64,000 nucleotides of DNA from the NCBI GenBank assembly GCA_040954595.2, contig CM082597.2, positions 2,900,265 to 2,964,264 on the forward strand, given 5' to 3'. Below the pieces are notes generated by a model that did no database searches, was not told the DNA's origin, and saw only the letters and a list, made by a program, of their open reading frames with translations. The position numbers and the translations under genes are program-made. Shown here in pieces: positions 36,140 to 62,917 of the stretch. Source of the stretch: Balanoglossus misakiensis (Eukaryota > Animalia > Hemichordata). Each line of letters begins with the position of its first letter. The first letter of the stretch is position 1.

Positions 36140-36790
36140 AATATTTCAATTCAATTCAATTTATTTTCACTTTCAATTTTTACATTGAATGGTGAAAAAT
36201 GTACTGATAAAGTGAAAAAAGCAGGTAGGAAAAATAGCACTAGTCAAGTCCACCCCAGCCCCCCCCCCCCCCCATGGTGAACAGTAGAACACTTGGTTAG
36301 TAATACATACAAAAGAAAAAAAAAGTCAAACTATACTTTTTCCTAACAAGGATTTCATTTGTTTCTTAAATGAACATTTTGACCTTGTTGAGCGCGTATT
36401 TTCAGGAAGTTTATTCCAAACCTTTGCTGCAGTGTACTTTATGGAATGTTGGCCAGCATTACTGTTATATTTCGGAATAAAAAGATCGCCGATATCTTTT
36501 GATCTGGTATGATAAGAGTGTTGAATAGGAACGAAATACTCTGAGAATCCTGGTGGAAGCTTGCCATTGAGAGCATCATGAACAAACAAGGAAAGTTGAA
36601 GATCACGTTGCTTGTATACATTCAAGATATGTAACTCATTAAACAATGGTGAAGAGTGTGCAAGACGGTCTGATCCCGCCAATACATGTACAATTCTTTT
36701 CTGTGTGAGAAGTATTGGCCTCAAAAAAGATAAATAAGTATTTCCCCAAGTTTCTATAGCATAGGAAATGTGTGGAAGGATAAAACAGTA
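36140..36790 (-). mobile_element. 5'-truncated non-LTR retrotransposon (CR1/L2-group), C-terminal ORF2 fragment
   Basis: ORF 36326-36724 has QKRIV..HSSPLFNELHIL..HSYHTRS..WNKLP..SFKKQMK, typical post-RT motifs; a (ttcaa)n tail lies at ~36144-36160. Confidence 0.8.
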
Positions 36791-37604
36791 AATATAAATT
36801 CTGGAACTTGACTTTCATTAGATAAAATCTGTATACATATCAATGATGAACAGTGTAGCCAAAAATGACAAGATTTTTCCTCGAAATTTGCATAATACGC
36901 TTGTTAACATGAAGTTCACAATAGCTAAATGATTCTATGCAAAAACTGAGTAATGCACACTCAAATTTCGGGTCCATGTGGACAGAGCAAACTTTTCTTT
37001 CTTTTCTCACCCGCTAAATATATAAAAAAACTTATTAAAACCCATAAATCAAAAATCAAATTCCCCAACACGTCATACCGGTAAACATGATTCTGTGAAA
37101 TCAATGTCCAATCGACAGAAAATAAATCCTGCAATAACATCCCCTTGAGGCACTGCATGTAAATGTACTTTCAAACTTTCAAGTCTTGATTTATTTAAAA
37201 TAAAAATTACTCTTGAATATATGTTTACAAAACCATTAGTTCTAAATTTTATGTTTTGTATCAAATACCTATAAACGTATATCAATATGTATGTATAAAA
37301 TTAGAAAAATAGTGTAAATGTACTTATATCATTCGTCCCAATAGTTAAGACATGTTCGATACTACTTCAACGTAAATATTTTACGAGGAAGAACACCACT
37401 GCTTAATTTTCATCGTAGTTTCTAGAAATATTTAAAATTTCAAATACAAAAAAATATTTTGTAAACAATATAAAATAAGCAATCAAAATTGAATAGTTTG
37501 TCTGGTTACATTGCAATGCATTGTCATTAAGCAAGCATCTCTGCTATACTAAACTGTTCAGTGATTTGCTTGAATATATGGGCGTCCACAATATCAGCTG
37601 ACAT

Positions 37605-40600: not shown

Positions 40601-43600
40601 TCTGTGCAATAATAAATGAGAAGTTCACCAGATCCTTCAAGCTGCAGAATAACTTCGTCTTCGCAAGGCTCATCAATGTGGTAATTGACCCACTGTGTGC
40701 CGTTGTATGTTTCAACTTTTACACAGGTGTCTCCAGGTGGGTAAATTATAAGGGTACCGTCGCTTGAGTAACTTAAATCTGTCAAATTATAAATTCAATT
40801 AATTAACAATGTGAGGTTTAACTTGCTCATATCTAACCATATTCTAAAGTTCAGAGGTCAGATATACGGTATACAGCACGTACAGTATAGAAAAGCAACA
40901 AAACTCAGATAACGTTGTCAATTTCGCTTTCCACTTTTAAATAACATATGGGTCTTGTGTTTCAGGTTTATCATCTATCTGTTTCATTTATTTCCAATCT
41001 TAAATTCAGATATTGTAGTCACATCGGATGTTCAATCTGTAAGTCATTTCTTATGTTAGCCTCACTTGTATTACTCTTATGACGCAAATTCCTAGCAAAA
41101 TCCTGATTACTCACCAGTTTCACTAGGTGTTGGAGCTGTTCAGAAATAATACAGGAATGAAATACATAATTAATACAATGAAGAACTCCTTGAGAAGAGA
41201 GTTGATTCAGTTAAGAAAATTTTGTGTGTCTCCAGCAGCCCGGGTCACCCTTTTTCAAACACTTAACCTAATTTTGAAAGATTTAAGAAAACCTCACGAT
41301 AATAATAATAAACTTGTAATTCAAGTACTGCTTTTTGGCATTATCATAGCCACGTTTCAATTGTCCAATGTATTCACATCAACAGTTACAAAAATCATCT
41401 CTTAACGCAAGCATCCTACCAATGACCAAATGAAAATGAACTGACAGTCCCAAGAAATTATATCATGCATACCAAATGTCAAATCGCGCAATTAATCAAC
41501 CAACCAACCATCCAGCCACCAACAAATCCAACCCAATCATCTTTCTGCCCTTTGCTGTTTGTTTATACCTCTAATATTTTACTTACGTAACGTTGAGTTT
41601 ATCACAGGCTGACTGTAACTCTTGCCAATATCATTGATGCTGACAACAGTGATGTGATATTCAGTCATATGTAGCAAGTTATGGATCGTATCTGTTGTAT
41701 TTTGTGTCTCATTTGTTTTCCTTGTGTCATCTTCTGGTGATTGAGTTTCACGGTATTGTAAGTAGAAACTTTGTTCCAATCCACCATCGAATCCTGGTGT
41801 CCAAGTCACCGTCAAAGTATCCTCAGATTTATCTTGTACAAAAACATCATAGGCTGCATATGGTCTTGCTGGAATTAATATGATGACGTTCAGGTCAATT
41901 TTCAGATAGCTTAACATTTTGATATTTGGTAACAACAACAACAGCAACATTATTTTCCTTCTGTTTGTCGAATGGACATGTCAAGAATGTATTTTTTTTA
42001 ATAAAATGCCAATCAAAAAGTAAAACAATACTTAATTCAGCTGTCTCTGAAACAATTTTGCCAAGTGTAGGTGTATGATTCCCTTCCAAGTTTCATGACA
42101 TGATATTAGACAATAGAGGCACAATATAAGGGCCAACGTTGCAATTTCTTGATTAAGGAATCATTGCTTTGAGATCACGCTGCAAAAGATGAGTAACTGG
42201 ATATAAAGTGTCAATCGATCTTAACGACAACATGTAACGCAATTACCTATATCAGACAGAATAATTATAAAATCAACTTACACTTTCCAGAGAGATTTAT
42301 CGTAAAATTGATGCCATTTAAATAATTGGTACTTTGGCAAACGTAATCACCATAATCATACTCAGTAACATTGTAAATCGTCAGCATACTCTGACTGGTT
42401 GTGTCGATTTTGTTTTCACTGATGAGGTATTTATCGGTGTCGTTGATGATGGATTTGTTTCTGTTGTCAAACCAGGCAAAATCTACGAGCGGGTTACTGT
42501 TGATTTCACACAAGAGTTCAGCATCCTCTGTCAGATTAACAGTCTGTCTTTCATTTTCTTCTTCGTTCAACACAAAAGGAGAGTCTGAAATAATAATCAC
42601 CACATAAAACATAACTCAACGAATTAATGCAATTGATACCGTTTAGATTTCCAATAACAGCTTGATCTGTTACCCTTTTGAAGAAAGATATCCCATAATA
42701 AAACTGCTCGTTAGAATAATTGATAACCAGCACGAATTTAAGTTTTAGGTGATTTAACCCTGGAGTAAGACATATTTCGTCGATTCGGTTCCCTTTTTTT
42801 GAGGGGGAGAATAGTTCAGACTAGCAAATGTTGCAGTTCATGCTTTTACACTAATTGTTTACTAAAACTATCAATTTCTCAAATACAATATAGAATTAAA
42901 ACCAATGGAGCTGCCACTTTTTGCCCTATTTTCATGATTTTACTTTCCAACTTTGCTACATCCAAGTAAGCCCACTGGTCGGTATACATGAACATCTTAA
43001 CTATTGTGTTAAGCGTCGCCAAGAGATGACAAACACAACTAATATGGTTTAATGGTGATGATTCTAAAGAATACTGAGAATTGAAATACTTTAAATGTAC
43101 TGCATGCACTTCTTTTGCTAAATCCGCAGATATTAGGAACATGTTTGCTTTTATGACAGCCAGTTACATAGCTTTGGTTGCCAAATTAAATAAGTTATAC
43201 CCAGTCGAACAACTAAAACGTCTGCTGGGTCCATGGATAATTAAAACACCTAATAAACATATTCTATCCAACATTTCAATTACCGTGCTCAAATTCCTAC
43301 TAAGTGCCAATGTAACATGTTCACGAATATACGTCGCATGGACATGAAAATAACCTTGCTGCTTTTGTTGAAGTAATGATTTGAAACTTGGATGGGCACA
43401 CTGTTTCAGTTTATTTTACTGCATTTCCCATTTAGTTTGGATCTGATATGTCTTTGTGGGACCCACTGGAGTGTCTGTATGTCATAGTGTTTTCATCATT
43501 TCGCTTGTCGTATGTGTGTTTTATTTATACGTGACCCCTAAATCAAAGTAATTAATGTAGCATTTCAAAATAGGACTTACAGTGTACGTCAAGCACGGTA

Positions 43601-46600
43601 TCTTCTGACAATATTCTGTCCTCTTTGAATTCGTCGTTGAAAGCCTCACATCGGTATATTTGTCCATGATGTTCGTAGTTAATTAGGCGAAGTGTTAAAT
43701 TTTGCAATGTGATAAACCCAGCGTATACACCGTCCAAATATTGAATTGGACTTAAATCCTCCTTGACTTGTATTCCATCTCTGAACCAGTCTATGCTCGC
43801 TTTAGGATTACTGCTACATGATATGCAGGTAAGCACGAGTTCGTCACCTTCAACTACAGGTCCTGAGTATCCCGTTAGGTTTGTGATGCAGCCATCTGGT
43901 TCTACAGGTTGAACTAAATAAAGTAATAGATAGGCATTAAGGTGATACCGTCACATTTCTAATCATGGATTGATGTCGGTGAAATAAATAAATAAATAAA
44001 AAAATGTTTGGTTTGAATTACGATTGCCCAAGTCAACCAACTTTGAGAATGACGGTGTGATTGAATAGGCTTGCGATGGCTTTTGAATTTTCTTCAAATC
44101 ACCTGAAACCGGACACTGACAAGATTGCACATTACAGCACGCGGTGCGAATCATTGTGAGAATTAACATTACAGTCTCAGTAGCTACATTACATTTTGAT
44201 GAGATTGTGACCGGCTCAGATAAGGGCTAGAGCGTTAACAATTATTACAAATATATTGATTCTACTTACAATACACCTCTGTTTTAACATAGCTCGATGA
44301 AAGGCCGTCCGAGTAGCCAGTCCGCGTAGCATTGCAGTTAAACACATTAGCATTATGAGATGCCTGAATATTGATGATCAGACAACCTTCTGTAATCTCC
44401 CCATGGAATGAACCCTCTGTTCTTCTTTCTATCATGGTCTCGTGTTCATTTCCTGATATCTCAACTCCGTTCTTGTACCAATAAATAACAGAGTAGGGAT
44501 TGCTAGAGTCCGTGATACATGTTAGATTTAAAATTTCACCTTTTTTGGCAGGTTCATCGTACGCACTTATGGACAAGGATATACTTTGAACTGCAAAATA
44601 AAAATGGCCAATATTTGTGAATGTAGTATGTTTATTAGATTATGCAAATTTTTCTCCATGGACTCAAAATACGTAAGATATACATGTTTTTTATGCTTTC
44701 TGAGACAATTAAATAGCCCAGGTCTATTTAGATATGATTGCTTTAGTGAATTTTATATACCGTAAAAATTATTTCACTGATCCACAATTAATTCTTACAA
44801 TGACCATCATACAATAATTACGGGGTTAATTGTCACTGATCTCGACATTATTTGCATTGACGGACATTGATTAGAGCAAGAAAATATACCCTTCATTTAA
44901 AAATAGTATAAACTGTACTTACAAGATACGTTTAATGGGCCAACCCAACAGTTAAGTACACCAGTCTCAATATCATTGAAAGCTTCGCATCTGAGTAATA
45001 TCTGGTTATCATCTCGCTGAAGAGTCCATAAATGTTCGTTTATGGCTATTTCGCCTTCATATTCTTGCGTTTCCGTCAAAACATATTCGCCTGTTTCATT
45101 TATCCATCGTAATGTTGCCAGAGGATTGCCATCAGACGTGCAAGTAATGTTAAATAAGGTCCCTTCATGAAATGTGTCGCCCTCCGTATTGTAACACGTT
45201 TGTGATGTTGGAAAATCTAAGGTAAAATAAAAAGGAGCTACTGTCCAAAGGCGCCATGTTTGGTAACTTGCTATCAAAATGGCTTCATTGTCATTATCAT
45301 TCTGGTTAACAAATTCCCAAATGTATAATATTATGTTATATGTCATTAGCGTCGCATATCGCCCGATGCATAGTCGAGGGTGTTGCGCTGCGCTAATGTC
45401 CAAGTACATCTCCGTTAGTTTTTGCATTGCATATTGCTTGGCTTTCAAAACGCCTGTATAATCGATCGTAACCGCTCATGCTGAAGCACGGTACACAGTG
45501 AGCATACTTTCTGTTTTTGTTTACATTGGTTTGGGGGTAGTCTTGAAACAGTTCGCAGTGAAAGTACATCCGTATACAAGGTGAGTTTGGGTGCCTTGAA
45601 ACTGTCAACATACGTAATTAATTTCTTAATATATTTAACGCAAGAGAGACAAATTCAGTTGATACAATAAAATCCATTGGTTGGTAAAATGCATTGGACT
45701 TGAAATTCATTGCTTACATGTACTTACATTTAATGTCGAGTGCGTCTGTGCTACAAATGTTAGGTGGAGAAACGGTCTCATGGTTACCATGACAGTCAAA
45801 TATTAGACCGTTATCGAATTGTGTCAAGTTCCACCTAAATATATTTGATGTTATTTTGTCACCACCCTCTTCTGGCACAGTGTATTCACCATCCAGCGCA
45901 GTAGAACCGTTGAGCCACACGAGTTGTGGATATGGGTTTCCATCTGTGGCGGTGCAGGTGATTTCGGCAAGGTCTCCAGCTTTTGCATATTCATCTCCGG
46001 AGTTGTAGCTGAATAAACATTCCGGCCAACCTTCGTCAGGTTCATCTAAAATTATATGATATTAATGCAAGAATCGAACTTTAACAGCAAATAGAAATGC
46101 CACCCCAGAAATAAAAACAGAGAAACTGAGCAAATGTTATGACATGGACTTACATAATACATCTAGAAAAACGTCTGTCTTCTCTGTTCCGAAGGTATTG
46201 GTCACGTCACATGTGTATGTTGTTCTGTCTTCACGTAGTACATAGTCAATGGAAAATGTAGTTCCGTCCGGACTTACATTGTATCTACCATTGTTGGGTA
46301 TATCGTTTCCGTCTTGATACCATTTATAGGTTGGAGCTGGATTTCCACTCGATAGACAGATCATCGTCACTGTATTATATTCTATGACGGGCTCTTCCTC
46401 AATAGTGATGGTCGGTACACTTGGGGCGCTGGGGACTGTGACATTAAAGTAGTTTAAAATGTGAACATCATATATAGCCTATCGATTCGCCATAGACAAG
46501 ATATGTCAATAAACATGAGGTACGTCGATGGTTTAGTAGTGTTATATTTGTACTGAATGTACAAAAAGAACAGGTGGTTTCAATAGAAAAACCTATGGCA

Positions 46601-47863
46601 ACATCAAAGCTGCTGCCATAGATAGAGACGAATGTGATGCAGCAAATGGATCATAAAAAAGAAAACACCAAACACACAATTTTAACAAACGTTCTCAGTA
46701 GCTGGGAGGATAAAATACAAACTGTCGTTGTTCTAGAGCTTATTGCTGAAGAAAATTCTGATATTTCTTGGAAAAGCATCGTCTACACTTTGGCGGCCAG
46801 AGAAGTAGCAAAATAAAAAATTCCATACCAAGCTACCTACCCTATTTTTGAAAACCATGTAATCGGAAAAGCACACATTAATTGTTTCGGCCTAATGTTT
46901 CACTAGGAGGAGCACCTACTAATGCGAGAACCATGGATTGAAAGTTGTGCCTTCAAGCATCCGTTTAAATTACCTGATACATCCAAGAGTATGATGTCCT
47001 CATCTCTAGTAATACCTGGCCCGGAAATTTCACATATATAGGTTTCACTGTCTTCAACAACTGTTGACGTGATGTTCAGTGACGCCTGATCAACCAAGCT
47101 ATGGCGATCGTAGCCGTCGCTAAATACCGGGTCATGTCCATCTTCACGAATGACAATCACATTTGCAGAGTCAATCGAATTAAAATACCAAATCAATGTT
47201 TCTCTGGTTTCGGTGTATGTACACGGCAATAATGCGTCTTCGCCAACATAAACATACACGTCATCACCCGTTTGAACGTCTTCAACTCGAATAGGTTTCG
47301 ACAAACTGTCGACTGTCCCTGTGACAACATAATTGAGAGTTATAAGTTGCTACGTTCATAGACTTAATGTGTTTTTCATGAATATATTTTGTATTTTGCA
47401 TAAGAAGGTAAGTGCTTAGCCAAATATTAATTAAGCATTTGCTGATCAAATGATCATTTAATTGTAAATTCTTTAACAGAAAAATCAAATACAACGCCTC
47501 TTTTACCGTTTTCAGATTGCAACTGAAGACAACGCACAACATTACATACATGTACATAGGGTGTGTCAGTACCAATTGTGGCACAATGATACCATGTATG
47601 GGAAAGTTGATTTTCAGCTGCACAAGCAATATTGTCAGCCTTTGGTAACTGCGAACAACTCGTTGACTTCTGCTTTCTTTGGATGTAAATAAAAAGTGTT
47701 CAAATATTGCCTGCAACAGACATGCCACCATTTTCTCTGCTTTCAATATATCAACGTCCATAAAAGTTTACTTGCATTCACTCAAAACATATAATGGGTA
47801 TTGCAACGTGAGCTTACCAGATAAATGAACAGCAGAGATAATCGTCAAAGCGAAGAGGATCAT
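37605..47863 (-). CDS. Gene C: nephrin-like IgSF receptor, paralog of gene A (signal peptide, V-set, 6 Ig, FN3, Cys-containing stalk, TM, ~300-aa tail with ITIMs and terminal ITSM)
   Basis: Leader 47818-47863 ([15 protein letters not shown]); V 46974-47318; Ig 46154-46435, 45728-46045, 44923-45216, 44270-44590, 43581-43913; I-set 42282-42584; FN3 41587-41868; stalk 40560-40778; TM 40079-40210; cytoplasmic 39812-39830, 39461-39543, 39229-39342, 38746-39018, 38207-38430, 37605-37760 (LVYADL...TEYADI). Open frame with GT-AG sites. Confidence 0.88.
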
Positions 47864-47981
47864 GTCTTCAAAAGGTTTTAGGTTGATATGAATATGCACC
47901 CTCTGTAATACCATTTCACTCCTGTAGAAGAAGGTCATTATGAATATCTGGTGATGTCATTTTGTCCCATGATCCAAATCA
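45620..47981 (-). repeat. Inverted segmental repeat arm 1 (5' end of gene C)
   Basis: Reverse complement matches 54037-56452 across exons and introns; ORFs 46903-47304(-) vs 54778-55179(+) and 46634-46816(+) vs 55253-55435(-). Confidence 0.92.
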
Positions 47982-48051
47982 TTGATTAACCAACCTAACG
48001 CATATCGCATTTCATTTACGAGAGGTTTCTATCACGGAAGGAAGATCAAAC
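47864..48051. promoter_or_regulatory. Putative bidirectional promoter/5' UTRs between genes C and D
   Basis: Only 188 bp separate the two divergent ATGs; contains an ETS-type acggaag/ggaag near 48034. The TSSs themselves cannot be seen. Confidence 0.6.
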
Positions 48052-51000
48052 ATGGCTGACAGAGAAAAACAATGTGCTTTACTTCTGGTTTTCATAATTT
48101 TGATATCTATCGACAATGGTAAGTGGAGAACTCTTATCTAGCCATCCTTTGTTTCATCAATATTGGATTTTCTAACACCTTATTTTGTCTTCTCAGGGAC
48201 GAAATCATGTGAGGTTGAAATTAACATCGCAGACGATAGTGTTTGTGAAGCAGTTGGACAGCCGTCTATCTTAAATTGTTCGTACGCCGTCGACTCTTGC
48301 AACACCGAGCTTCTGGAGTGGTGTAAGAATGAGGGTACATCTTGCTCTACAATCATACAGCTATACGATGGAATTGAATATAATTTTGCTGGATATGAAC
48401 GGTTTTCATTCATAAGTGGTACAACTGACTTACTCATAAATGAAACTTTACTCGAAGATGAAGGTGTATATACCTGCAGTATTAGTACTACAGGCCTGTA
48501 CATTGCTGAAAATGTAAATCTCGACGTCTTAGGTATGTAAATGGTCGTTAAGCGGGAAATCAATTTATGATGTTATGTCACTTGGTATTATACACTAGTC
48601 TAATATGTGCCCATACTCACCAAGTGACAAGTAAAGAGGACATTTTACCACGTCATTCTCTGTAATGTGTGAAGTGTATAGTTGTAAGGTGAATGCCAAA
48701 CCCGCATCAGTGAAAGACATTTCTCTATGGGAAAAATTCGAAAGTATAATTATCTTGCATAAACATATAATAGCACGAAGTGTTTTGCTGTATTTTGAGT
48801 ATCAACAAACCATGAGGGCGCTTTTCACATGGTGGCGATTTTTTTCAACTCTCAGCTCTTAGTGCTTAAAACGTATTTAGTTGAACCAAATGTAACTGTT
48901 TACATATCAGACGATTTCGTAGAATTGATTTCAGGCAGCAAAATAATATGTAGCGCTAATAGTGTTAGACTCCATAGGAATTAATGAAACCAAGCTCCAA
49001 CATTTCAATTACTCAATATGCAGATAATCCAAAAGTTCCATTGCAAATTTTTATGAGTTTGTTAATTTATCACATATAGAGTAAAATGTACGGTAAACAA
49101 AGACTTGGTCGGGTTTTTGAGTGAACATTGAATAGTTATTAGAGTAACTTCAGTTTACCTTTGAGGGCGATTGGTAGTTATTTAAACATAATATGCATCT
49201 CACAAATTCTGCCCAACAGGTATACCTCTAGTCACCGTCCTTATTCCCAAAGCATTAATAATTACCGCTGTAATATTGCTTTAATTGTGTGTATCGTAGA
49301 GGACACTTAATGCACTCAACATTTCATTCAACCCATCTAGAAGTAGTATAATAGGCTAATAAAACTGTCTTTATCCAGTGACTTTATCCGGTGTACGTAT
49401 TGACATGAAGCCCGTCACAATTGGTTAATGTGACTATGTTTATTATCGGTCGAAAAGTACAAATTAAAGTGTGTTTTATTTGTTACCTACTTGCTTCTTT
49501 ACCTCATCTATGCTTTCCATTTCATATTCATTAAATGTTATTTATAAATGACATATGTCAAATTATCCTTTGATTGATCCGGTTTTGTTTTCTTATTCAG
49601 AAAATGCACCGACGTATGCAATGGTAGAATTTGATTCCCCAGCTATAGAACATGACACAGTTTTCATGATCTGTCACCACTCAAATGTAAGCTGTATATC
49701 ATATGTGTGGTACAAAGGTGGCATGCAGTTAAATCAATCATCAGACGGCATATATTATGACAGATGGAATTCTACCCTTATTATATTCAATGTCAGTAGG
49801 AGCCATTCAGGATCATACAAATGTGAGGCAATAAATGCTGTTGGAAGTGCGACAAGCGAAGAGGTATACCTTGATGTCGAGTGTAAGTAATGTAACTGTC
49901 AAACTCCAATTCACAGTTGGTGTTTTGATACTACATTCTGGGTATCAAAATAATCAGTGTTAGATCATAATATACTGATCATGGCATATTTTCTCCACCT
50001 GTCGAGATACTAATATTATTGAGATAATATCTCGCATTCTGTACCGGATACCATCAGAAACTCTATATCTTCCGCTCTGAGATGGAGGCTAAATTGGCAT
50101 ATTTTCCTAATCACCATTTCGTTAGTTACAACACTACCTGTATGATGATAAGTAACACCTAAAATTAACAACACAGACAGTTTTTTTCCAGCAGTTGTCA
50201 ATCTTCACTAATACTCACTAATAGCACGGTTATACCCAAACAAAAATCTATCTTAATTTCATATAAAACTCTTTGAATCATTAACGTTTAATAATAAATC
50301 CTAGAAAATATCCACAATATAGTTCTCAAAAATATATTTTTATTTATTTTTTCTTCGGAATTAGTCCCAGCATCGAATGTCGAAATATACGGTGGATGCG
50401 ACGAACACGAATGGAGATTCTCATGTCAATGTGATGCTAATCCAGATGATGTAAATTACACCTGGACGTTCAACGAGAAATACACTATCTATGGGCAGAA
50501 TATAACAGTGAATACTACCACTTGGAAACATGGTACTGTCCTGTGTGAAGCATGTAATATGCATGGCTGCGATTCACAAACTTTACCATACAAGACTTGC
50601 CCCACAGGTATACACAACCCCTTTCTTAATTATAGTATCAATATCAAATTACCCTACATTTCTTACGGCTTACACTGGACGTTCGATGTATATAAGTAAA
50701 GTACCTTACATTGTATTTTATGCTGATCACATTTGTCGGCAGGAGCTGTTGCATTCATTGTTCAATGGATATATTTCAGAATCATTCATATTTTAAATGC
50801 CTAACTGAACGTCGTCATTTTTACTTCTTTTAGACTCGGGAGTACTCTGGTGGGCAATAACCCTATGTGTCATACTTGGATGTGGATTGATTGCTGGCGG
50901 TATCGGTCTTGCCATATATCTTATAAAACGTCCAAAACGGTAAAATGATTTTTCGCAGTTAATATTGATCTGTTTTATATGATCACATTCAACATTCATG

Positions 51001-51448
51001 GCAATGAATGGTAATTTCGTTTCAAGCCATAGACCAGTTTGTATGTATTTGCATTAGATAGGAACAATTGCAAAGTCACTTGAACATATCAAAATAACTT
51101 ACCAAGATATCAGTCATTAGTGTAAGCACCAGGCAATTGAAAATGTCTCAATCTTGAAAGATTTTTTTCAATGAAAAACAAAATTCAGAATCTTCGGGGC
51201 AAGTAATATATGTGAAACTTAATACTGGAATACCAGCCAAAGAATTTGACCCTGGAGTTGCGGGTGGCATGTATTGTGCGCAATATTAAGAACGTCAATT
51301 CCAAACCCCACCACACACATCAGTGCATTTACTGTATCGTACGACACAGTTAGTAATTCCAAATTCTATAATGCATTGTCCTTTGTATGTGAATTAAGGA
51401 GACATAAACTAATACCACCAACATTTTCTTCTTTCTAGATTATCATAA
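48052..51448 (+). CDS. Gene D: short IgSF membrane protein (signal peptide, V-set, 2 Ig, TM, ~7-aa tail), paralog of gene B, divergent from gene C
   Basis: Leader 48052-48118 (MADREKQCALLLVFIILISIDN); V 48197-48532; Ig 49601-49882; short Ig 50365-50607 (FSCQCDANPDDVNYTW..VLCEACN); TM 50834-50939 (VLWWAITLCVILGCGLIAGGIGLAIYLI); last coding exon 51439-51448 (tail KRPKRLS-stop). Confidence 0.85.
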
Positions 51449-52241
51449 TGCTGGATACCGACTGCATAAAAAGGTGTGTTATACACTTCATATGTCTAGT
51501 TTTATAAGCACTGTATAATGATAAGCGTACTATCGTCGGTCAACATTCTGCGTGACACTGTGTGATCCACTTGTTCTTGTGATAATGGCCGTATCACCGA
51601 TCATTTCGACTCATAGTGACACGGCCATGCGTCACATATTGGCGAATTATACATAATGTAGTATTTACTCGTATGGTAATTCATAGTTTAGGAACTGGAG
51701 ATAGACGTACATTTAGATTCTTATTTAGACATTGGAATATAAAAATGCCTCGATTGCCAATATATCGTTGGTGCATATTACCTAAAGATACCGAAAAAAA
51801 AATTCTTGTATTGTGTTCCGGTTTTAACATTCTTAGTGGCTAGTATAATTGTGCACAATAAATAAAAAAGTGTTTGTAATTCAGGAGTTGGCCAAATGTT
51901 TATGGCCAATATAGATAAGTCCTGCACTGGAAAATCCATATGTTTCATTAAAATATGTGTAATTATTAACTTATCATTTTCCTTACTTTACAGAGATTGC
52001 TGTAAACAGTGTTATCCTTCAGTCCTTTCCAAAGTTGGACAATGTACTGGTCGCAAAGAAAACTTCTTTATCTTGTTCTTGTTGTATATAAGTTTTTTCA
52101 CAAATCAAATAATACATACAATGTATATTATATATCGGATATGACACACAATTACATACTTTTATATCACTAATTAGGTGAGTCTTCTGGAGATTTTTCA
52201 CATTGTCACATTTGAGATCGTCGACAGAACATAAAGTACAT

Positions 52242-52576
52242 ATTTTTGAAGGCTAACATATAGGGGAACATTTTTGTTTTGTTTTGACCATTGTTTACAC
52301 ATCTATCACATGACAGTCAATTTCAATTTCTGCACATTCGGTGAATTAATTCACTGCTCAGGAAGTTTATGTGTTATATATGATTTTTTTAAATCCGAGA
52401 TTCTTTCTATGAGACTTACGGCAGGTTGCATTCACGCAAAATTGTGTCAAATATTTCAAAGCAGTAACAAAAGACATTGTGAAGATTATTGAAATCACCT
52501 GTCATGTGATAGGTGCATACACAATGGTCATGGTGACGTTATGAACATGTTTCCCCATATATTAGCTTTCAGAAAA
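52242..52576. mobile_element. Degenerate MITE-like inverted repeat
   Basis: tttttgaaggctaacatataggggaacat ... atgtttccccatatattagctttcagaaaa. Confidence 0.45.
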
Positions 52577-53672
52577 TAAATGCTTTAAGGCTATTATGAG
52601 GTCAATAATTCCCAAAGAAATTTTTATTTCAAAAAGTCAATTTCTTACACTGGAACACATGTTTTTTAAACCTAACCAGACTTATTGTAATCTTTAGAAC
52701 AGATAAACCAAAGGCAATTTAAATGCAAAGTTGTAAAATCTCACGAGAATTTGTATGTACGCTTGAAATCAAAGAAGCAATTTTCAAGGTAAAAACAGTG
52801 GACACGAGCCAACGGGGCTATACATTTAAATGTGTAAAGCAAGTCTGTAGATATTGTTTTGGTTTATTTTATGACATCTGTGGTAATTTTGTTGGTAACT
52901 TATCCTAATCACATTTAAATAACTGACAAGACATACAGGCTATTGTAAAATGAAAGCGAAATTGAAATTCAATGGTAAATATCCAATGATTTGTACATCC
53001 ATGTTACTTGTTGTTCAAACGATTATATTGTGAATGACTATAGGAACGTTTTTTTCACATATTCAACTTAATTAGGTTAAGGAAAATAGTGTTGTATATC
53101 CATTACTTTGAGGTCAGTGTGTATTTTGAATTATATACAATGCTTATTTTTATCAAAACGTAGTATTCTCCGGTAATGAATCATTGTGAATAAAATGTTT
53201 GTGCAGTGTAAATATTTATGATTGATTGATTGATCCACCAATTGTCCTGTTAGTTTGTTTGGTAAAAATGACACTACAATTTTCTTGGCAACTCTGTCTA
53301 AATGCAACACCTTGTGGGGCTGTGTCTAAAATTGAACAAGTGCCAAGTGCTGTTATAACATAAACATACAATGTATATAAAAATAAATGATTAAAATGAA
53401 CAATTCTGTAAAGATTGGTTGTTGGTCCAGTCAGTATTGTTAGCATGTAACAAAATCACAGTTAAGTTGCCGCAGAAAACAAACACAAAATTATTCTCTG
53501 GCCGACATTCACCATAATTCCAACGAGACTGCCAAACAGATTTCACAGCCGGTTGAACACTTCAAATACTATTTACTGTACACGATTATTCGACCACATA
53601 AAATTGTTCTCTGTCAAAATAATCTGCAATATGTTCTCTGCATGGCATTCGGTGTTAATAAAGTCATTGTTC

Positions 53673-53810
53673 TGCTTGAATATATGGGAGTCCACAATAA
53701 CAAATGTGTGTCACTCGGCGTATTCGGTTGGCCTCAACCTGGCATTTGTGTCTTCTTCAGGCTGTTACCTAATCCAAGTATGCATAACCCATACATTTGG
53801 CAACGGGAGC
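53673..53810 (-). pseudogene. Decayed copy of the terminal ITIM/ITSM exon and 3' UTR of an A/C-type receptor
   Basis: Minus strand reads APVAKCMGYAYLD*..KKTQMPG..TEYAE (stops, frameshift) versus gene C APNAEGLVYADLD..KKPMPG..TEYADI. The UTR stretch tgcttgaatatatgggagtccacaata matches 37567-37593 with one mismatch. The acceptor AG is lost. Confidence 0.75.
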
Positions 53811-54036
53811 TCGTACAATAAAATAAAATATAAATAAGCTTTTTTTTATAGTGGTATGCAGCAAATTGTTATATGTGAAATCAACACAGCTGGTCTACAA
53901 TCATCTATTACATTTCGTTGTAATTATTAAGTGTTAATCATTTAAAGCTTAGAGTCAAAAGAAATTACTGCCATGTAAATAGCGCCCTCGTGGCTTGATA
54001 CTGAAAATACGCCAAAACACTTAGTGCTAGTATATG

Positions 54037-56452
54037 TGATTTGGATCATGGGACAAAATGACATCACCAGATTTGGCTCTTTATTTAGAATGACTTTGTG
54101 TTAAAGGAGTGAAATGGTGTTATAGAGGACACGTATTCATATCAGCCTAAAACCTTTTGAAGACATGATCCTCTTCGCTTTGACGATTATCTCTGCCGTT
54201 CATTTATCTGGTAAGCTCACCTTGCAATACCTATTATATGTTTTGAGTGAATAAAACTATAAACTTTCATAGACGTTGATATATTGAAAGCAGAGAAAAT
54301 GGTGACATGTCTGTTTCGGGCAATATTTGAACACTTTTTATTTACATCCAAAGAAAGAAGAAGTCAACGAGTTGTTCACAGTTACCAAAGGCTGACTATA
54401 TTGCTTGTGTTAAAGAATCATGCTCTTAAATCAGCTGAAAATCAACTTTCCCATACATGGTATCATTGTGCCACAATTGGTACTGACACACCCTATGTAC
54501 ATGCATGTATTGTAGTGTCTTCTGTTGCAATCTAAAAACTGTAAAACAGGCGTTATATTTGATTTTTCTGCAAAGAGGTTTACAATAAAGAGGTCATTTG
54601 GTCAGCAAATGCTTAATTGATATCAGGTATCAGTAAGCACTTCATTGTCAATTCGGTATTTGTGTGATTACCTTCTTATGCAAAATACAAAATATATTCA
54701 TGAAAAACACACCATTAAGTCTATGAACGTAGCAACTTATAACTGTCAATTATGTTTTCACAGGGACAGTCGACAGTTTGTCGAAACCTATTCGAGTAGA
54801 AGCCGTTCAAACAGGTGATGACGTGTATGTTTATGTTGGCGAAGACGCATTATTGCCGTGTACATACACCGAAACCAGAGAAACATTGATTTGGTATTTT
54901 AATTCGATTGACTCTGCAAATGTGATTGTCATTCGTGAAGATGGACGTGACCCGGTATTTAGCCCCGGCTACGATCGCCATAGCTTGGTTGACCAGGCGT
55001 CACTGGAAATCACGTCAACAGTTGTTGAAGATAATGAAAACTATACATGTGAAATTTCTGGTATAGGTATTCCAAGAAGCCATGACACCATACTTTTGGA
55101 TGTATCAGGTAATTTAAACGGATGCTTGAAGGCACAACTTTCAATCCTTGGTTCTCGCATTAGTAGGTGCTCCTCTTAGTGAAACAAATAATATGTGCTT
55201 TTCTGATTACATGGTTTTCAAAAATAGGGTAGGTAGCTTGGTATGGAATTTTTTATTTTGCTACTTGTCTGGCCGCCAAAGTGTAGACGATGCTTTTCCA
55301 AGAAATATCAGAATTTTCTTCAGCAATAAGCTCTAGAACAACGACAGTTTGTATTTTATCCTCCCAGCTACTGAGAACGTTTGTTAAAATTGTGTGTTTG
55401 GTGTTTTCTTTTTTATGATCCATTTGCCGCATCACATTCGTCTCTATCTATGGCAGCAGCTTTGATGTTGCCATAGGTTTTTCTACTGAAACCACCTGTT
55501 CTTTTTGTACATTCAGTACAAATATAACACTACTAAACCATCGACGTACCTCATGTTTATTGACATATCTTGTCTATGGCGAATCAATAGGCTATATACA
55601 TGTATGATGTTCACATTTTAAACTACTTTAACGTCACAGTCCCCAGCGCCCCAAGTGTACCGACCATCACTATTGAGGAAGAGCCCGTCATAGAATATAA
55701 TACAGTGACAATGATCTGTCTATCGAGTGGAAATCCAGCTCCAACCTATAAATGGTATCAAGAAGGAAACGATATACCCGACAAGGGTAGATACAATGTA
55801 AGTTCGGATGGAACTACATTTTCCATTGACTATGTACTACGTGAAGACAGCACAACGTACACATGTAACGTGACCAATACCTTCGGAACAGAGAAGACAG
55901 ACGTTTTTCTAGATGTATTATGTAAGTCAATGTCATAACATTTGCTCAGTTTCTCTGTTTTTATTTCTGGGGTGGCATTTCTATTTGCTGTTAAAGTTCA
56001 ATTCTTGCATTAATATCATATAATTTTAGATGAACCTGACGAAGGTTGGCCGGAATGTTCATTCAGCTACAACTCCGGAGATGAATATGCAAAAGCTGGA
56101 GACCTTGCCGAAATCACCTGCACCGCCACAGATGGAAACCCATATCCACAACTCGTGTGGTTCAACAGTTCTACTGTGCTGGATGGTGAATACACTGTGC
56201 CAGAAGAAGGCGGTGACGAAATAACATCAAATATATTCAGGTGGAACTTGACTCAATTCGATAACGGTCTAATATTTGACTGTCATGGTAACCATGAGAC
56301 CATTTCTACACCTAACATTTGTACCACAGGCGCACTCGACATTAAATGTAAGTACATGTATGCAACGAATTTCAAGTCCAATGCATTTTACCAACCAATG
56401 GATTTTATTGTATCAACTGAATTTGTCTGTCTTGCATTAAATATATTATGAA
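54037..56452 (+). repeat. Inverted segmental repeat arm 2 (5' end of gene E)
   Basis: Begins tgatttggatcatgggacaaaatgacatcaccaga (reverse complement of ~47947-47981) and ends about 100 bp into the intron after Ig3. Confidence 0.92.
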
Positions 56453-59400
56453 ACCAATCTAACGTATATGTTGCTTGCGATTTCTATTCGAAAAGTCAAT
56501 GAAATATTCAGTTGTCCGACAATGTTTCATAATGTCCAATGTCAACAATGAGGCCGCGTACAATAATGTATTGTTTTCAGTATGCTTATTATATACAAAT
56601 TAAGACCGGAGTACGTCATATTATTACCAATAGCATTCTACCGGTATGCCCTTGCACAGGATATACAGTACATCTCACCATACATGTATGTCCTATAGTC
56701 AGGAGTGTCTACACATCACACATGTCACGTTTCTTTTGATGCCTATCCACAGACGAACCAAACATGCCATGGCCAACCTGCACAAACTATACAAGTGCAG
56801 ACGATTACATAAAAGAAGGTGATGAGATGATGATAGTTTGTGAAACAGTCGACGGCAACCCCTACCCTGCACTAACGTGGTTCAATGGCAGCCAAGAAAT
56901 GCCAGGGTACTACTCTCCCCCGTCTGACTGTGATTGGGAATGCTCTACGAATAATACATACATATGGACGCTGACGAAGTATGACAATGGTTTGACGTTC
57001 ACGTGTGAAGGAAACCACCAAGAAACCCTGACGAATGGAACTTGTGATCTGGGTCCCTTAGATGTTAAATGTGAGTACAACGCTAACAAGAAATGTATGG
57101 TTTCCATGAACAATAAGATGGACCTTTCACAATGCGTGATATGGTAAGATGATGTAATAATGAACAAAAGTTAGGGAACAACATTGAGATATCACATATT
57201 TGACCTACAAGCAGACGACCTCAAGCACTAGACTCCTACATCACTTCCGCTTGTGAACAAAGTGTTTTAATGGGGAGCAATCGTGCTGCAAGTAATTGAA
57301 AGTACACAATGACGACATCAGCTCTTCTGAATATTTTATTGATTAAAACTAAATTGCAAAAATACGTATCCCAGTAGTACTAGTATTAAACTGAACAAAT
57401 TGTACCTGACTTGAGTTCTGTATGGTGTCCTTTTTTACAAAGATAGCCCAGAGGACCCCGTTTGCAGTGACCATGGCGGCGGCACGCAAACTGCTGAAGA
57501 AGGCGAGGATTACGCAATATCCTGTGAGTCTATCGGTGGCAATCCTCTGGCAACGCTTAGATGGATCAATGAATCTGACGGAAGTGAGATGGTCATGACA
57601 TCACCAGGACCGGAAGATAGTGGTAGTACTACTTGTAACCACACATGGACTGTTACTAGAGCTGACAACCAAGGAACGTTTAGATGCGAGGCGACTAGTA
57701 TGGTCCAAACAACACCACTGAACTGTACATATGGCCCTATTATCATCAACTGTAAGTTATTATCAAATGTTCAGCCCAATAAGAATACACGAACTGACAC
57801 CAAACAATTAAGTTTCATCCTTACACACTTCACGATCATCTGTATCTGCAACCTCTTTATCCCAGTCTCACTCTCTCTCTGTCTCTCTCTCAGTTCCGCC
57901 GAATCAGATCATCTTGTCAGGTTCAGATGACCAATTTAGAGTGAACGATGTATGGATACTGACCTGTACAACTGATTCTAGCAACCCAGCTGCGGAGGTG
58001 CAGTGGTACAAAAATAACGAACTGCTTGACGACGAACACATCGTCGTCAAGCCAAAAGAGGAGACATCAGGTGACTTCAACGGAATGTGTGTCACGCAAG
58101 ATATCGACATAACATTACAAGCTGATGACAATATGGCGGAATATTTTTGCCAAGCAGCTACATTACACTACCAAGGAATGAATTCTAATGCCATGATGAT
58201 AAACGTAACATGTATGTATCCATTTTCATACAAATTCGTAGCATCACAATTCTCAAGTTGTTTTGGAAGTTTTTAGGAGCATGTGACCATCATTAGCATT
58301 ATCGTTGGTCAGCGATTGGTCACTTATTTTTCTCTCTTTTACCACCATGTAAAATACAAGCCCAGGAACTGGTTTGAAGTTGACTTCTAGTATACTATAC
58401 ATGACAAAATCCCTAGTCGATGACTTTCTTGGTACAGTTCCTCCTTCAGAGCCCGAGAACTGCGAAACAACGTTGGCAGGATACGAAGGTCCTCTTGTTG
58501 TAGGAGACATGTTGACTCTGACATGTACATCGTGCAGTAGTAACCCCGAAGCCATCTTGATGTGGTATCGTGAAGACGCTTTGGTTGAAGACGGACTGAG
58601 TCCAGTTGAATATCACGAGGGTCATTACAGTGGAACGATATCATCACAAGAATTCTCACTGGAAGTATCAGTTTGGGACCATGGTGTTGTTTTCCACTGT
58701 GAAGCATACAACGAACTATTTGAAGATCAGTATTACAAATCTGACACGACACAGCTTGACGTGCACTGTAAGTACATTGTTAAATTCACCCCATGTCAAT
58801 TATAGCATTGTATGTTTTTCTGTAGGCCATGCATAGTGCATGCGTAGTTGGTATGCCTTGGCTGCGCGAGTAATAATTTGGCTGTGTGAATGCATTCACA
58901 GATTCACCTAAGATTGGTGGGACCATATTTGCGGACACTTCCGGTTCATGCAGAGCATGCATAGTTGGTACGCCTCGAGTGTGTGATTAATAAGTTCACT
59001 GTATGAATGCTTTCGCAGATTCACCTAAGATTGGTGGGACCAGGTACAACAACACAGCTATCGAGGTGAATGAAACTGAGACTGTCGAGTTGGTCTGTAA
59101 AACAAACAGCAATCCACTGGCTACTATCACGTGGTTTGACCAGTTTCGCGACATTGTCGTGAATAACACCGAGAATCGCGTCATAAAGGAATACAGTTGG
59201 GACACTTTGACAGAGAGCAGGCTGTTTCTTTATGACGTCACTGTAGAAGATTCAGGGAACTACTCATGCGCGGGAAACAACTCCATTGGTGTGGAAACAT
59301 TGAATATCGAGGTCATAGTGATTGGCGGTATGATATTTCATCAAACACTTTCCTATTCCTGCCTTTGTTGGCCTTCAATCATGTTGATTAAGCTTAATAT

Positions 59401-62198
59401 TCGTGCTAGAATACTGTGAGAATAGTGAAGTGGCCAGTCGGTCCATTTATAGGTTAGAATGTGACTGTATTGTACGACAATATGACTATATATATACTTG
59501 TGCCATACGCATATTCGTTCAACTGCAACAAATGGGGTTTCATTTTGACTTTCCTTTAGTCCCAGCGATAGAGACAACAGCATCGACATTGGTCGGTTTA
59601 GTGGTATTCATAGTGATTGTCAGTGTAGCGATATTGGTAGTAGTTGTTCTTCTCATCGTTAGAAGACAACGGGAGAGTAAAGACAAAAGCGACAACCAAG
59701 CAGGTTTGGAAATGAGACCAGTTGACTCGTTATTTTGCTTCAGAGACTTTCAGTGTATTTGGTGATGCTGGTGGTGGTGGTATTGGTGGTGGTGTTGGTG
59801 TTGTTAATGGTGGTGGATAAGAGGGTATAACTAACAATGGCGTTGGTGATCGATAATTGATAACACTCATAATAATAGTTGCTCCTTTTCGGCTACATAT
59901 GTTCAAGGGAGGCTAACTGTTTGGCAAGTTAAAATAATGGATGAACGTGTTCCATGTCAATGCAGCTGAACATTTCCTCATCTTAATTTCCCCTTCTTTT
60001 ATTTATTTTCAGCTTCGATGAGACCTCAAGGGTAATGTGGCTTAATTTAATCACTCACACAATGTTTATATCTTAATTCATGTGTTATCACCTTTGTATT
60101 GTAAGTTCACTAAACACTATTCGTCACATTTGAAATCATACTTTCTCTTCCCCCATTTCAATGACAGGCCTGTCTACGCCGATTTAGAAGAAAATGACAT
60201 TCCTGAAAAGCACGAATATATGAAACTTGTGTTTCCTTTTGGTAAGCATACATCCTGTTCTTCTGTATATAACATGGATGTGTGATATTATCCAAGAATA
60301 TGGTTACGGTTTCGCTTTTACGAAATTAGCAAAAAAAATCAGTCTGGCTGTATCAGTTCTTTATACATGTACATCGATATTACATTTTAAATTCAAGAGA
60401 GAGCCAAGCTTTGCCTTAACACGGCATCGTTTCTGTCTCACAGTCAAACAATTATGTCTCCTGGCAACTAATTCTTTCCTTGTTTTGTGTCTATTTGTGT
60501 TTTTTTGCTTAAACGCGCAGGTAAGGCAGGACGTGGCAGAAGGAGTCGCGACGACAAGGTGAGAGGCACGTTCAATTGCCACTTTATGGTAATCTGAGCA
60601 TTTATATGTCTCATATGCAAAATAAACCCCTCTGTTTACAACATTGGAATCATGACGAGTGCAGACCATGGTAATTATGCATATGTTTCGTTTCGTAGGA
60701 GACTTTTCACCAAGACGTGGACGACGGCGGTTATGACAACTTCGAGATACCATACAAGTCTATCGCATTCATTGAAGACATCTCCATTGGGATATTCACT
60801 AAACATATCAAAGCAAATATACATTTACCTGGGAAGGGAAAGGTCGCTGTCTGTGTCAAGACCCTAAAGCAGGGTAATGTAACGTATTAAGATTTGTTTT
60901 AAATTTTCCTGAACAAGTTTGTTGCCATAGTCAGTACAGAATATACATTACTGATAAAACAGAAACCTGACTTTGTAATTTCCTGTGAAGCGGTGTCTTT
61001 CCTTTGCATCTGATTGTGTAAAATGTGGAATAATTGATTGCCCGTCACCGATTCGCACTCTAGCTGCGCCTTTGGACCAGTCGGCATGCCTTGACATCTT
61101 CAATTTTACATTTCCAATGTGGACGCATATGACTGTGTATATTTCAGTGTGGCCTCTCATTACTTTCGTTACAGCCAATGACGAGCTATCTCAGCGCTGC
61201 ATCTTGAAAGAGATCCAGTTCATGAAGACACTCCCTCGGAATGATAACATTTTGCAGATGATGTACTGCTCTACAAAACAAGGTAACACGTTCAAATTAC
61301 TGTCTGTATGTCTGTATTTAACCCTTTCAACAGTGTTTACTGTACAAATATCATGATTGTGTTGTGATGGGGATGTGCACACGCTTCATCAGAACCCCAG
61401 ATCTCAAGTATACATGTAAGTTCAACCGTTTCTTTCATCGCAGCACCATATTGTCTGATTTACGACCACTGTTACCAGGGCAACCTGAAGCATCATCTAC
61501 AGGGCATGCGCAATAAAACTATCGGAGGAGCGGACGAAGATTGTCCTATAGAGTTGTGTTCATATGCCTTGCAGATTGCAAAGGGGATGTCATACCTGGA
61601 GAAAATACAGGTATCGAACAATTACTGCAATAAATCTGTCTCAGTTTCTCTAAACCTGTTCCTTCCATTCATTCTTTTTGTACACCTGCAATTCCTGTAC
61701 TTTTTTCAATATGAAGCTGATGGATCTTCACATCTTTAGTGTGTACACAGGTCACTTTCCGCGCGAAACATACATGTGGGCGATAATGGTGTTTGCAAGA
61801 TATCAGGATTTGAGTTTTGCAGCAATGTTATGAGCTTAAGCACCCTTGATGAGATGACAAAGGTAGGATATTGTTAATATACACGTCACTAGATATACAC
61901 AAATTCGATAACACCATAATAACATTTCAGAATTCTCTCTCTCTCTCGTCCATTTTACCTTGGCATTCATGATCACACACACGTATATATTTATCTATCC
62001 ACCTACAGAGTCGTCTTCCAGTTCGCTGGATGGCAATTGAATCTATACAGAATTGCATATACACAGCCAAATCGGATGTCTGGTCTTATGGAATCGTCCT
62101 CTGGGAAATTTTCACTCTGGGTAAGGATTAAACTTTGACCGACATGAAATGAATGGAGTATTCTAACATCACCGATATACAGATTTATACGACATGTC

Positions 62199-62229
<31 letters not shown>

Positions 62230-62917
62230 TGTACCGTATGTACCAGTATGTATGTATGTATACCTTTACTTTTCAACAATTTTTTCTATCTGTGAAGGTG
62301 ATAATCCTTATCCCGGCATGCCAATAAATGACGTCATATATGAAGTCAAACAAGGACACAGAATGGATGCACCATCTTACGCTGATGATGTTATGTGAGT
62401 AAATTAACAAAATGCGCCCAGAATTCATACATGTCCTTTGGTGACTTCAGATTAATAGTGGGATCTCACAGGTAAAATAAGCATGTGTGACGCAATTTTG
62501 CTTTAGGGAAGTTTAAATTCATCTAGTTTCATTTCTTGCTTTTCAAAGACCAGAACTTATACCATATTATTTAATGTTTAAAAATTGTTGTCATAGGTAC
62601 GCTATAATGTGGGAGTGCTGGGTGGAGGAACCTCAGAGCCGACCATCTTTTCTGGAGATGGCCAGTATCATCGAAGTAAATTACTCGGACGCCGGGGTAA
62701 TTTTTTTCTTTTGTATTTTTGGATATAAAACATGTGGGCGATTGACAGTGATTTTTAGCAAATGTACCGGTATACCGGTATATTCGCGGTGCATGTTTTG
62801 ATTGATCAATTTCAAAAATTTACCTTTTTGGTTTTGATGAATAAATCGATGATTTGTTGGTTTTTCCAGAGTTATGTCAAGCTCCGTGAAAATGCATCAA
62901 TCGAGGGAACGACATAG
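54165..62917 (+). CDS. Gene E: 8-Ig receptor tyrosine pseudokinase (FGFR/RET/Tie-class kinase fold) with a gene-C-like ectodomain
   Basis: Leader 54165-54210; V 54764-55108; Ig 55640-55921, 56030-56347, 56753-57070, 57443-57751, 57894-58211, 58438-58767, 59019-59327; TM 59560-59703; juxtamembrane 60013-60031, 60168-60241, 60521-60558; kinase 60699-60873 (VCVKTLK), 61175-61282, 61444-61610, 61740-61863 ([16 protein letters not shown]), 62009-62120 ([27 protein letters not shown]), 62298-62394, 62597-62696 (CW..P..RPSF), 62870-62917. Confidence 0.88.
62199..62260. repeat. (TATG)n microsatellite in a gene E intron
   Basis: atgtatgtatgtatgt... Confidence 0.85.

Follow-up and report, generated by a model that had tools for sequence, protein, structure and literature searches.

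The stretch of DNA analysed here, referred to as the window, comprises 64,000 nucleotides (nt) of the acorn worm Balanoglossus misakiensis (contig CM082597.2, positions 2,900,265 to 2,964,264) and harbours a cluster of genes for immunoglobulin (Ig) domain proteins, among which two receptor genes, C and E, lie in opposite orientation and possess near-identical 5' ends. Positions are counted from the first letter of the window, and the features on which the comparison of the two genes is based are the following:

37605..47863, minus strand: gene C, 18 exons, 1254 amino acids (aa); hand-built model based on open frame, GT-AG splice sites and Pfam
54165..62917, plus strand: gene E, 21 exons, 1259 aa; hand-built model based on open frame, GT-AG splice sites and Pfam
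45622..47981, minus strand: C arm, covering 118 nt of 5' flank plus the exons for leader, V, Ig2 and Ig3 and the associated introns
54037..56453, plus strand: E arm, an inverted copy that is 95% identical to the C arm

Gene C encodes a leader, a V domain, six further Ig domains, an FN3 domain, a small domain, a transmembrane (TM) segment and a tail of 299 aa. Gene E, in turn, encodes a leader, a V domain, seven further Ig domains, a TM segment, a motif resembling an immunoreceptor tyrosine-based activation motif (ITAM) and a tyrosine-kinase fold, without FN3. Both frames are intact, and Pfam assigned a family to 21 of 25 exons, the first domain being of the V-set and the others of the I-set or C2-type. 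The cysteine-containing exon of C between FN3 and TM (40560-40778, minus strand, 72 residues) is devoid of a Pfam match. In both genes the TM exon is directly followed by a micro-exon of 19 nt (60013-60031 in E, 39830-39812 in C) and then by a phase 2-to-1 exon, which suggests a common origin of the start of the two tails.

Within the window, BLASTN returned a single inverted match, which pairs C 47981-45622 (minus strand) with E 54037-56453 (plus strand), and the two arms are separated by a gap of 6 kb. One alignment yielded 123 mismatches in 2342 columns (94.8% identity), another 114 mismatches in 2341 columns plus 11 indels (95.1%). Relative to the ATG, the tract begins 118 nt upstream in C and 128 nt upstream in E, the 5' flank common to both genes amounting to 118 nt, and it terminates about 106 nt inside the intron following Ig3. 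These data bear out an earlier interpretation made from the DNA letters only, hereafter the sequence-only reading, which had described a near-identical tract of about 2.4 kb including an upstream part, leader, V, Ig2 and Ig3; the protein motifs quoted there are likewise present in the translations of C and E.

Inside the arm the two proteins are 89% (V), 94% (Ig2) and 91% (Ig3) identical, whereas past the arm identity drops to 42% for C4/E5, 31% for C5/E6, 46% for C6/E7 and 36% for C7/E8. The same domains show 32-49% identity to the Saccoglossus protein P0001, i.e. C and E are no closer to each other than to this relative. Moreover, the alignment scores of five C/E intron pairs past the arm are at shuffle level, with 26 to 176 of 200 shuffles reaching the observed score. 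Given 89-94% identity within the arm, 31-46% beyond it and unalignable introns, C and E are, by this measure, very old paralogs with a recent common 5' end, and the ectodomains past the tract are homologous but old, as had been proposed. P0001 is 40% identical to C over 599 aa, its best match among solved structures being SYG-2 (E 3e-22), and the sole match to an E exon outside the arm (one of 48 candidates) was a Saccoglossus protein labelled 'syg-2-like'. The ectodomains appear SYG-2/nephrin-like in sequence.

The physical reality of the arms was assessed with three sequencing runs (X1, X2 and X3) of one sample, available as contigs, of which X1 may be the source of the assembly. Exact X1 contigs (42507-45676 and 56399-62193) traverse each distal junction and reach 55 nt into the arm, and an exact X1 contig of 6115 nt (47952-54066) spans the middle segment, both of its ends lying within the arm's first 30 nt in opposite orientation, which is one letter less than the bridging rule of the search requires. 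In addition, an X2 contig extends 36 nt into the C arm, and the X2 arm contig exhibits a depth of 146 compared with 60-86 for unique pieces. An artefact as origin of the arms is unlikely, and the particular case in which one arm represents the allele of the other haplotype, wrongly joined in the assembly, appears very improbable. Such an error would be in keeping with an identity of 95%, which falls within the allele range of polymorphic marine animals, and no long read was seen across both arms, which leaves the middle segment without independent confirmation of its orientation; on the other hand, it is opposed by the exact contigs at the middle segment and both distal junctions, by the arm depth and by gene models that stay open and in phase over the junctions. 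The sequence-only reading had named mis-assembly of one arm as a possible objection; the contigs of the runs carry both arms. Concerning expression, one X3 contig skips the last intron of E at the predicted GT-AG sites, a joint lacking from X1 and X2, and the 3' end of E is probably transcribed. Among the X3 pieces displayed, no contig covers C exons or the 5' exons of E, an absence of cover that is uninformative.

The arms are not uniformly similar. Divergence amounts to 11.9% in the 5' flank, 6.9% in intron 1, 7.5% in the V exon, 3.2% in Ig2, 4.1% in Ig3 and 1.9% in introns 2-3. The non-coding segments alone are already heterogeneous (chi-square p 7e-6), and intron 1 differs from introns 2 and 3 combined (6.9% versus 1.9%, p 3e-5). 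One identical run spans 160 nt (permutation p 0.0095), and one window of 500 columns contains only 6 differences, a value reached in none of 20000 permutations. One duplication event with neutral decay thereafter would leave the exons closer to each other than introns 2-3, the opposite of what is seen, and such a history fits poorly. Repeated gene conversion with tracts of differing age fits better as the simplest reading of this uneven divergence, and the scan of identity along the arms, which had been put forward as a check on conversion, came out patchy. Constraint on intron 2 could mimic part of this patchiness, a possibility to be set against the high-copy repeat situated within that intron. 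The short repeat in question is of very high copy number and occurs in both arms (46833-46890 and 55182-55236).

The differences between the two V domains are concentrated at one end of the exon, where the following feature is delimited:

54993..55095, plus strand: divergent last third of the E V exon, from the E strand to the G strand including the loop resembling complementarity-determining region 3 (CDR3); 20 of 26 nt differences and 9 of 12 aa differences

In total, 12 of 114 residues differ between C and E, 9 of them in the last third around the CDR3-like loop. At the nucleotide level, 20 of 26 differences fall within the last 117 of 345 nt (p 4e-6), and the density of the richest 110-nt window was reached in none of 20000 permutations. 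Five changes lie after the second Cys, which aligns to light-chain Cys88, and are presumably located in the CDR3-like loop and the G strand, strands having been assigned from the sequence alignment. Relative to C, the V domain of E has lost one N-glycan site and gained two. An AlphaFold model of the C V domain from a four-row alignment was unusable (predicted local distance difference test score 36.5), and none of 148 candidates for the E V exon passed. At synonymous sites, too, the last third of V is strongly diverged (6 of 28 sites, compared with 1.9% in the intron that follows; p 1e-5), therefore this part looks like an older or conversion-protected stretch rather than a case of proven positive selection. 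In nephrin-Neph1 and SYG-2-SYG-1 the first Ig domain carries the binding, at least in the accessible part of that report (bioRxiv 10.1101/2023.10.27.564405). Ligands of C and E that overlap are more likely than identical ones, and the claim that both receptors bind the same ligand becomes doubtful with 12 V-domain differences clustered at the CDR3-like end.

Additional features around the arms bear on the origin of the shared end:

56753..57070, plus strand: E4, the extra Ig domain of E, of the same class as Ig3 and 44-47% identical to C3/E3
53664..53823, minus strand: decayed copy of the last exon of C, which bears immunoreceptor tyrosine-based inhibition motifs (ITIMs), plus 3' untranslated region (UTR); interrupted by a stop, a frameshift and a deletion; 70% over 102 nt and 87% over 39 nt
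53908..54037, plus strand: D-intron-like piece of 130 nt abutting the E arm; 76% identical to intron 2 of the intervening gene D (48895-48763), in arm orientation
45346..45603, no strand assigned: transposon-like repeat starting about 20 nt past the distal end of the C arm, with three further copies in the window

E comprises one Ig domain more than C and P0001, and the register past the arm is shifted by one domain. The distance between E3 and E4 equals that of other C/E domain pairs, and dropping the Ig3 of the arm leaves E with the Ig series of C and P0001; E4 is likely E's own counterpart of C3. Given this extra Ig, the first event looks like an out-of-register graft from C, and the direction of the graft was probably from C to E. 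Consequently, the proposal of the sequence-only reading survives in part: old paralogs with a recently homogenised 5' end agree with the age contrast and the patchiness, while an in-register conversion as first event fits less well with the extra Ig of E. The decayed C-type exon suggests the relic of a further C-like gene next to the E arm, whereas the D-intron-like piece, of which there are only two occurrences in the window, could stem from an earlier round of duplication or from a dispersed repeat. Both are located at the E junction, in agreement with a graft. A tblastn search for leftovers of a V or Ig2 exon that E itself once had yielded none. A fusion of the C 5' end to an unrelated kinase gene was considered and dismissed, as E5-E8 are homologous to C4-C7 and Ig-pseudokinases occur in two other acorn worms. 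Besides these features, the repeat beside the C arm features internal hairpins and inverted segments in all four copies (7955-8295, 16030-16600, 19840-20380 and 45346-45603) and is probably a non-autonomous transposon; another high-copy repeat lies directly past the distal end of the E arm (about 56466-56526).

The two tails are equipped with different signalling elements. That of C holds three ITIMs and one immunoreceptor tyrosine-based switch motif (ITSM), a count reached by 7 of 20000 shuffles and to be understood at motif level only, which agrees with the inhibitory-type tail attributed to C beforehand. It also contains two Nck-type motifs, YEDV and YDDV, and the YDxV pattern is absent from E. 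The E tail comprises 369 aa, is devoid of ITIMs and includes two features:

60168..60241, plus strand: juxtamembrane exon of E with YADL-(10 aa)-YMKL, ITAM-like
60699..62696, plus strand: exons of the E kinase fold; HRS in place of HRD, GFE in place of DFG, degenerate glycine loop, beta3 Lys and helix-C Glu retained

The ITAM-like motif is matched by 6 of 20000 shuffles, the motif having been picked after looking. Its 10-residue spacer lies inside one definition of 6-12 residues, as given in the part of the source at hand (PMC13358205). The catalytic loop of E reads HRSLSARN and the DFG position KISGFEF. Residues of both motifs have catalytic roles in kinases. With both the HRD and the DFG aspartates missing, E is not to be taken as an activating kinase and is predicted to be a pseudokinase; HRD and DFG are listed as conserved kinase motifs in the portion available of PMC8662651. 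An active receptor tyrosine kinase was thus rejected as an interpretation of E, given also the degenerate glycine loop. The opposite outputs originally postulated are not supported in that form, and any such effect of E would need the ITAM-like motif or scaffolding. The sequence-only reading had overlooked the absence of these two key aspartates, as well as the additional Ig of E and the non-identity of the V domains.

Relatives of E combining Ig domains with a kinase fold occur in other acorn worms. A profile-free search with one E kinase exon produced 19 matches, and among the six examined only Ptychodera P0013 was a relative, the other five being multi-kinase proteins without Ig domains. 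P0013 as query led to P0021, one of 7 of 483 candidates that passed, the other six being at 30-34%. Saccoglossus P0029 displays the Ig series of C plus FN3, followed by a kinase fold, and its automatic model is wrongly fused to a methyltransferase. P0013/P0021 (automatically labelled 'FGFR2/3-like') and P0029 share with E their Ig classes as well as a kinase fold without the HRD aspartate, with 38-48% identity to the E kinase; they differ in that their models are partial or fused and that P0029 keeps the FN3 absent from E. The HRD and DFG positions read HRA and EFG in Ptychodera and LRF and DLE in Saccoglossus, as compared to HRD and DFG in a Lingula control. Since Ig-plus-kinase-fold proteins are present in both Ptychodera and Saccoglossus, such members are old in enteropneusts.

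C and E are embedded in a wider cluster, which comprises three further genes:

48052..50939, plus strand: gene D (limits of its coding exons as far as the TM exon), encoding leader, V, two Ig domains, TM and a very short tail
817-21292, minus strand: gene A, the family's third receptor, with V, six Ig domains, FN3, TM and a tail containing LTYADL and VAYAMV
24541-26206, plus strand: gene B, placed head-to-head with A, with exons for leader, V and I-set; V 23% identical to that of D

C and D are arranged head-to-head with their ATGs 188 nt apart, as are A and B, and D is a candidate partner. The tail of A ends in a motif pair similar to that of C. The last Ig of A groups with C7 (98/92), while the other C domains match E and the Saccoglossus protein, and this grouping may record an older ectodomain exchange. 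No leader exon of A was found. A tandem duplication of about 3.6-3.8 kb within 16050-23250 has provided A with two V exons (20972-21292 and 17165-17485), both with intact splice sites, of which alternative or tandem use is possible. They differ at 31 of 321 nt compared with 14 of 695 in the flanking introns (2%), i.e. about five-fold (p 2e-7), and at 23 of 106 residues, with a pN/pS (ratio of nonsynonymous to synonymous differences per site) of about 1.3 from a count that included 7 nt of intron; one portion of the duplicated stretch reaches 99.5% identity. No further exons of B were found, which may be short or truncated. X3 contigs cover the non-coding stretches 52314-53400 and 29226-30103, which may be 3' UTRs belonging to D and B, respectively. 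An open frame of 162 codons (36329-36814, minus strand) shows no Pfam match and a high X1 depth, and resembles the end of a long interspersed nuclear element.

The X1 contigs further provide a lead on haplotypes. Over 39888-63400, depth declines from about 50-60 to some 30 in the vicinity of 43 kb, within gene C, where variant letters cease as well. Contigs over the C 3' half have depths of 40-49 and carry variants (12 letters plus 6 gaps within 1827 nt), including three non-synonymous sites within eight FN3 residues at 41611-41632. Between 42.5 and 63.4 kb, four exact contigs show depths of 30-31 and, among those listed, no variants outside arms and repeats. This hints at a second haplotype possessing the membrane-proximal half of C but lacking its outer half, D and E, with a possible boundary inside gene C near 43 kb. 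It is a lead only, given that depth is no copy number, that a contig at 28.6-30.3 kb also has a depth of 28 and that a duplicate of the C 3' part elsewhere would look alike. The head-to-head partners, the fast V exons and the haplotype hint together point to immune-type recognition.

Taken together, we see an even chance that the front ends of C and E are alike through a graft of a C block plus repeated conversion, and that the genes form an immune-type pair in which C would inhibit via its ITIMs and E, a predicted dead kinase, would activate via its ITAM-like motif. An inverted duplication-deletion would have placed the promoter-leader-V-Ig2-Ig3 block of C ahead of E4 and removed E's own leader, V and Ig2 as well as most of the neighbouring C-like gene. 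Later conversion tracts of various ages, the latest from intron 2 to Ig3, would have kept the arms alike, with the last third of the V exon skipped by conversion or selected against it. C would recruit SHP-type phosphatases, whereas E could be phosphorylated by a Src-type kinase and then recruit a Syk-type kinase or adaptors, a scaffold role being the alternative. The ligand might be D, the head-to-head neighbour (or an allele of D carried by another cell), or else a D mimic of microbial origin; signalling and ligand steps are read from the motifs. A bolder version remains tentative and on the doubtful side: a paired immune or self-recognition system of acorn worms, derived from nephrin-like receptors, with a dead receptor tyrosine kinase carrying an ITAM as 'on' switch, ITIMs as 'off' switch, D as ligand, swapped binding ends, haplotype variability and a CDR3-like loop held different.

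Several observations weigh against this interpretation. Only one genome was available and all reads stem from one sample, possibly the source of the assembly; conversion is inferred from patchiness, not from within-species clustering, and splice evidence covers only the last intron of E in one X3 contig. The pN/pS is 0.58 across the arm and 0.70 in the last third of V, both below 1, leaving positive selection between C and E unsupported. The nephrin-type YDxV motifs of C suit adhesion, the TM of E is without a charged residue, and the Ptychodera and Saccoglossus models lack a tyrosine at the ITAM-like site, though both seem to skip exons. A narrower ITAM definition of 6-9 spacer residues, in the passages available of PMC9546547, would exclude E's 10-residue spacer. 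Finally, the trees favour neither direction of transfer: none of the three groupings of E4, Sk3 and C3/E3 is rejected (p-AU, approximately unbiased test, 0.17 and 0.22), and in the best domain tree Sk3 joins C3/E3 at 78/83. Hence E might have duplicated Ig3 long ago and later have served, without any graft, as the donor in an in-register conversion that supplied C with leader, V, Ig2 and Ig3, an account of the history that overlaps the other alternatives. Trees placing E4 with C3/E3 are compatible with it (p-AU 0.17), and tandem Ig duplication is common here, gene A having three domains of one class; we nevertheless regard it as rather unlikely, because it requires an E3/E4 duplication coincidentally as old as the C/E split and leaves the D-intron-like piece and the relic exon at the E junction unexplained.

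The graft may also have occurred without any selection for pairing, one inverted duplication having created a chimeric E and mechanical conversion at 6 kb having kept the arms alike. The coincidence of arm ends with repeat-like elements, the gross rearrangement evident from the relic exon, the greatest similarity residing in introns and not in the V exon, the block perhaps missing from the second haplotype, and proximity alone being named as driver for SIGLEC11/16 in the part available of PMC5701461 all agree with such a neutral by-product. It is opposed by the open frame of E over 1259 aa and 21 exons, by the constraint apparent from the arm-wide pN/pS, and by a tract that spans the promoter end and the three outermost domains like those of selected vertebrate pairs, as far as the sources at hand describe them; overall we consider it unlikely, though not negligible, and even then the locus would offer a clear snapshot of a receptor gaining its neighbour's binding end. 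Less probable still is a role in adhesion instead of immunity, in which C would be a junction protein binding D and signalling via Nck and SHP, and E a pseudokinase co-receptor, with PTK7 as model, or a competitor that employs the shared binding end, outputs not being opposed. Acorn worms do possess a glomerulus with podocytes, and the nearest relative bears the name syg-2-like and best matches SYG-2. YEDV and YDDV of C resemble the Nck sites of nephrin, which also binds SHP-1/2 in the portion available of PMC12203975, and nephrin and Neph1 bind via Ig1 (bioRxiv 10.1101/2023.10.27.564405, likewise in part). However, the fast V-exon change in A, the tandem cluster with a relic member, the C-terminal ITIM-ITSM pair and the hint of haplotype variation are atypical of a conserved junction protein, and C has 7 Ig domains compared with 9 described for nephrin in the part of the source at hand.

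With respect to known systems, the likeness to SYG-2 and nephrin comprises the layout of C (V, a C2-type Ig series, FN3 and TM) and its YDxV motifs; C departs from them by its 7 Ig domains, by several paralogs, by an ITIM/ITSM or kinase-fold tail within the family and by single exons without a sequence match to SYG-2. Membership in the Siglec family was rejected: Siglec V domains carry a sialic-acid-binding arginine on the F strand, this region reads ETYICEIS in C and ENYTCEIS in E, and no Siglec was among nine solved V-exon matches. Within the literature covered, most subscription journals lying outside its scope and sources being available in part, no hemichordate paired receptors, none that are nephrin-like and none with a pseudokinase partner were encountered; in the portion available of an Asymmetron preprint, the content on gene conversion was limited to LTR (long terminal repeat) elements.

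In vertebrates, paired inhibitory and activating receptors that conversion at the 5' end keeps alike are a textbook example. According to the available parts of PMC5701461, SIGLEC11 and SIGLEC16 are arranged inverted and head-to-head, 9 kb apart as compared to 6 kb here, conversion has been demonstrated across species and proximity is named as a driver; the inverted, close layout of C and E resembles that of this pair, to which the sequence-only reading had pointed. In that pair, too, about 2 kb of 5' flank and V/C2 exons are alike (97-99%, against 95% here), the tract is fragmented and one partner bears ITIMs. C and E, likewise, are close neighbours whose ligand-binding exons are near-identical while their 3' parts diverge. 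On the contrary, these paralogs are far older (31-46% aa identity past the tract versus 88-93% nt identity in the Siglec B region), a third gene, D, is located between the partners, and conversion is here inferred only. Moreover, instead of the short tail and charged TM of an activating partner that signals through an adaptor, E features an uncharged TM, a long pseudokinase tail and an ITAM-like motif of its own.

Among invertebrates, the FF/FcoR genes of Botryllus, likened by description and as depicted in the accessible passages of PMC12582321, also form a deuterostome Ig cluster in which a motif-bearing receptor is paired head-to-head with a partner devoid of tyrosine motifs, include ITIM and hemITAM members, mix ectodomains by intergenic recombination and differ between haplotypes. 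The postulated invertebrate paired-receptor system would fit layout and motifs at this locus; among invertebrates, ITIM/ITAM pairs with ectodomain exchange were already known from Botryllus (PMC12582321). The Alr genes of Hydractinia, in the available passages of PMC9546547, resemble the locus by clustered receptors with V-set, Ig and FN3-like domains and with ITIM or ITAM tails, for which gene conversion has been proposed; they differ in being cnidarian, in domains 2-3 without paired cysteines and in that those passages describe no kinase-fold member. If the proposed reading is correct, B. misakiensis would provide, next to the ITIM/ITAM Ig clusters of Botryllus and Hydractinia, a third invertebrate lineage with the same design built from other parts, as well as a named candidate for a self/non-self recognition locus in hemichordates, to which echinoderms are the sister group.

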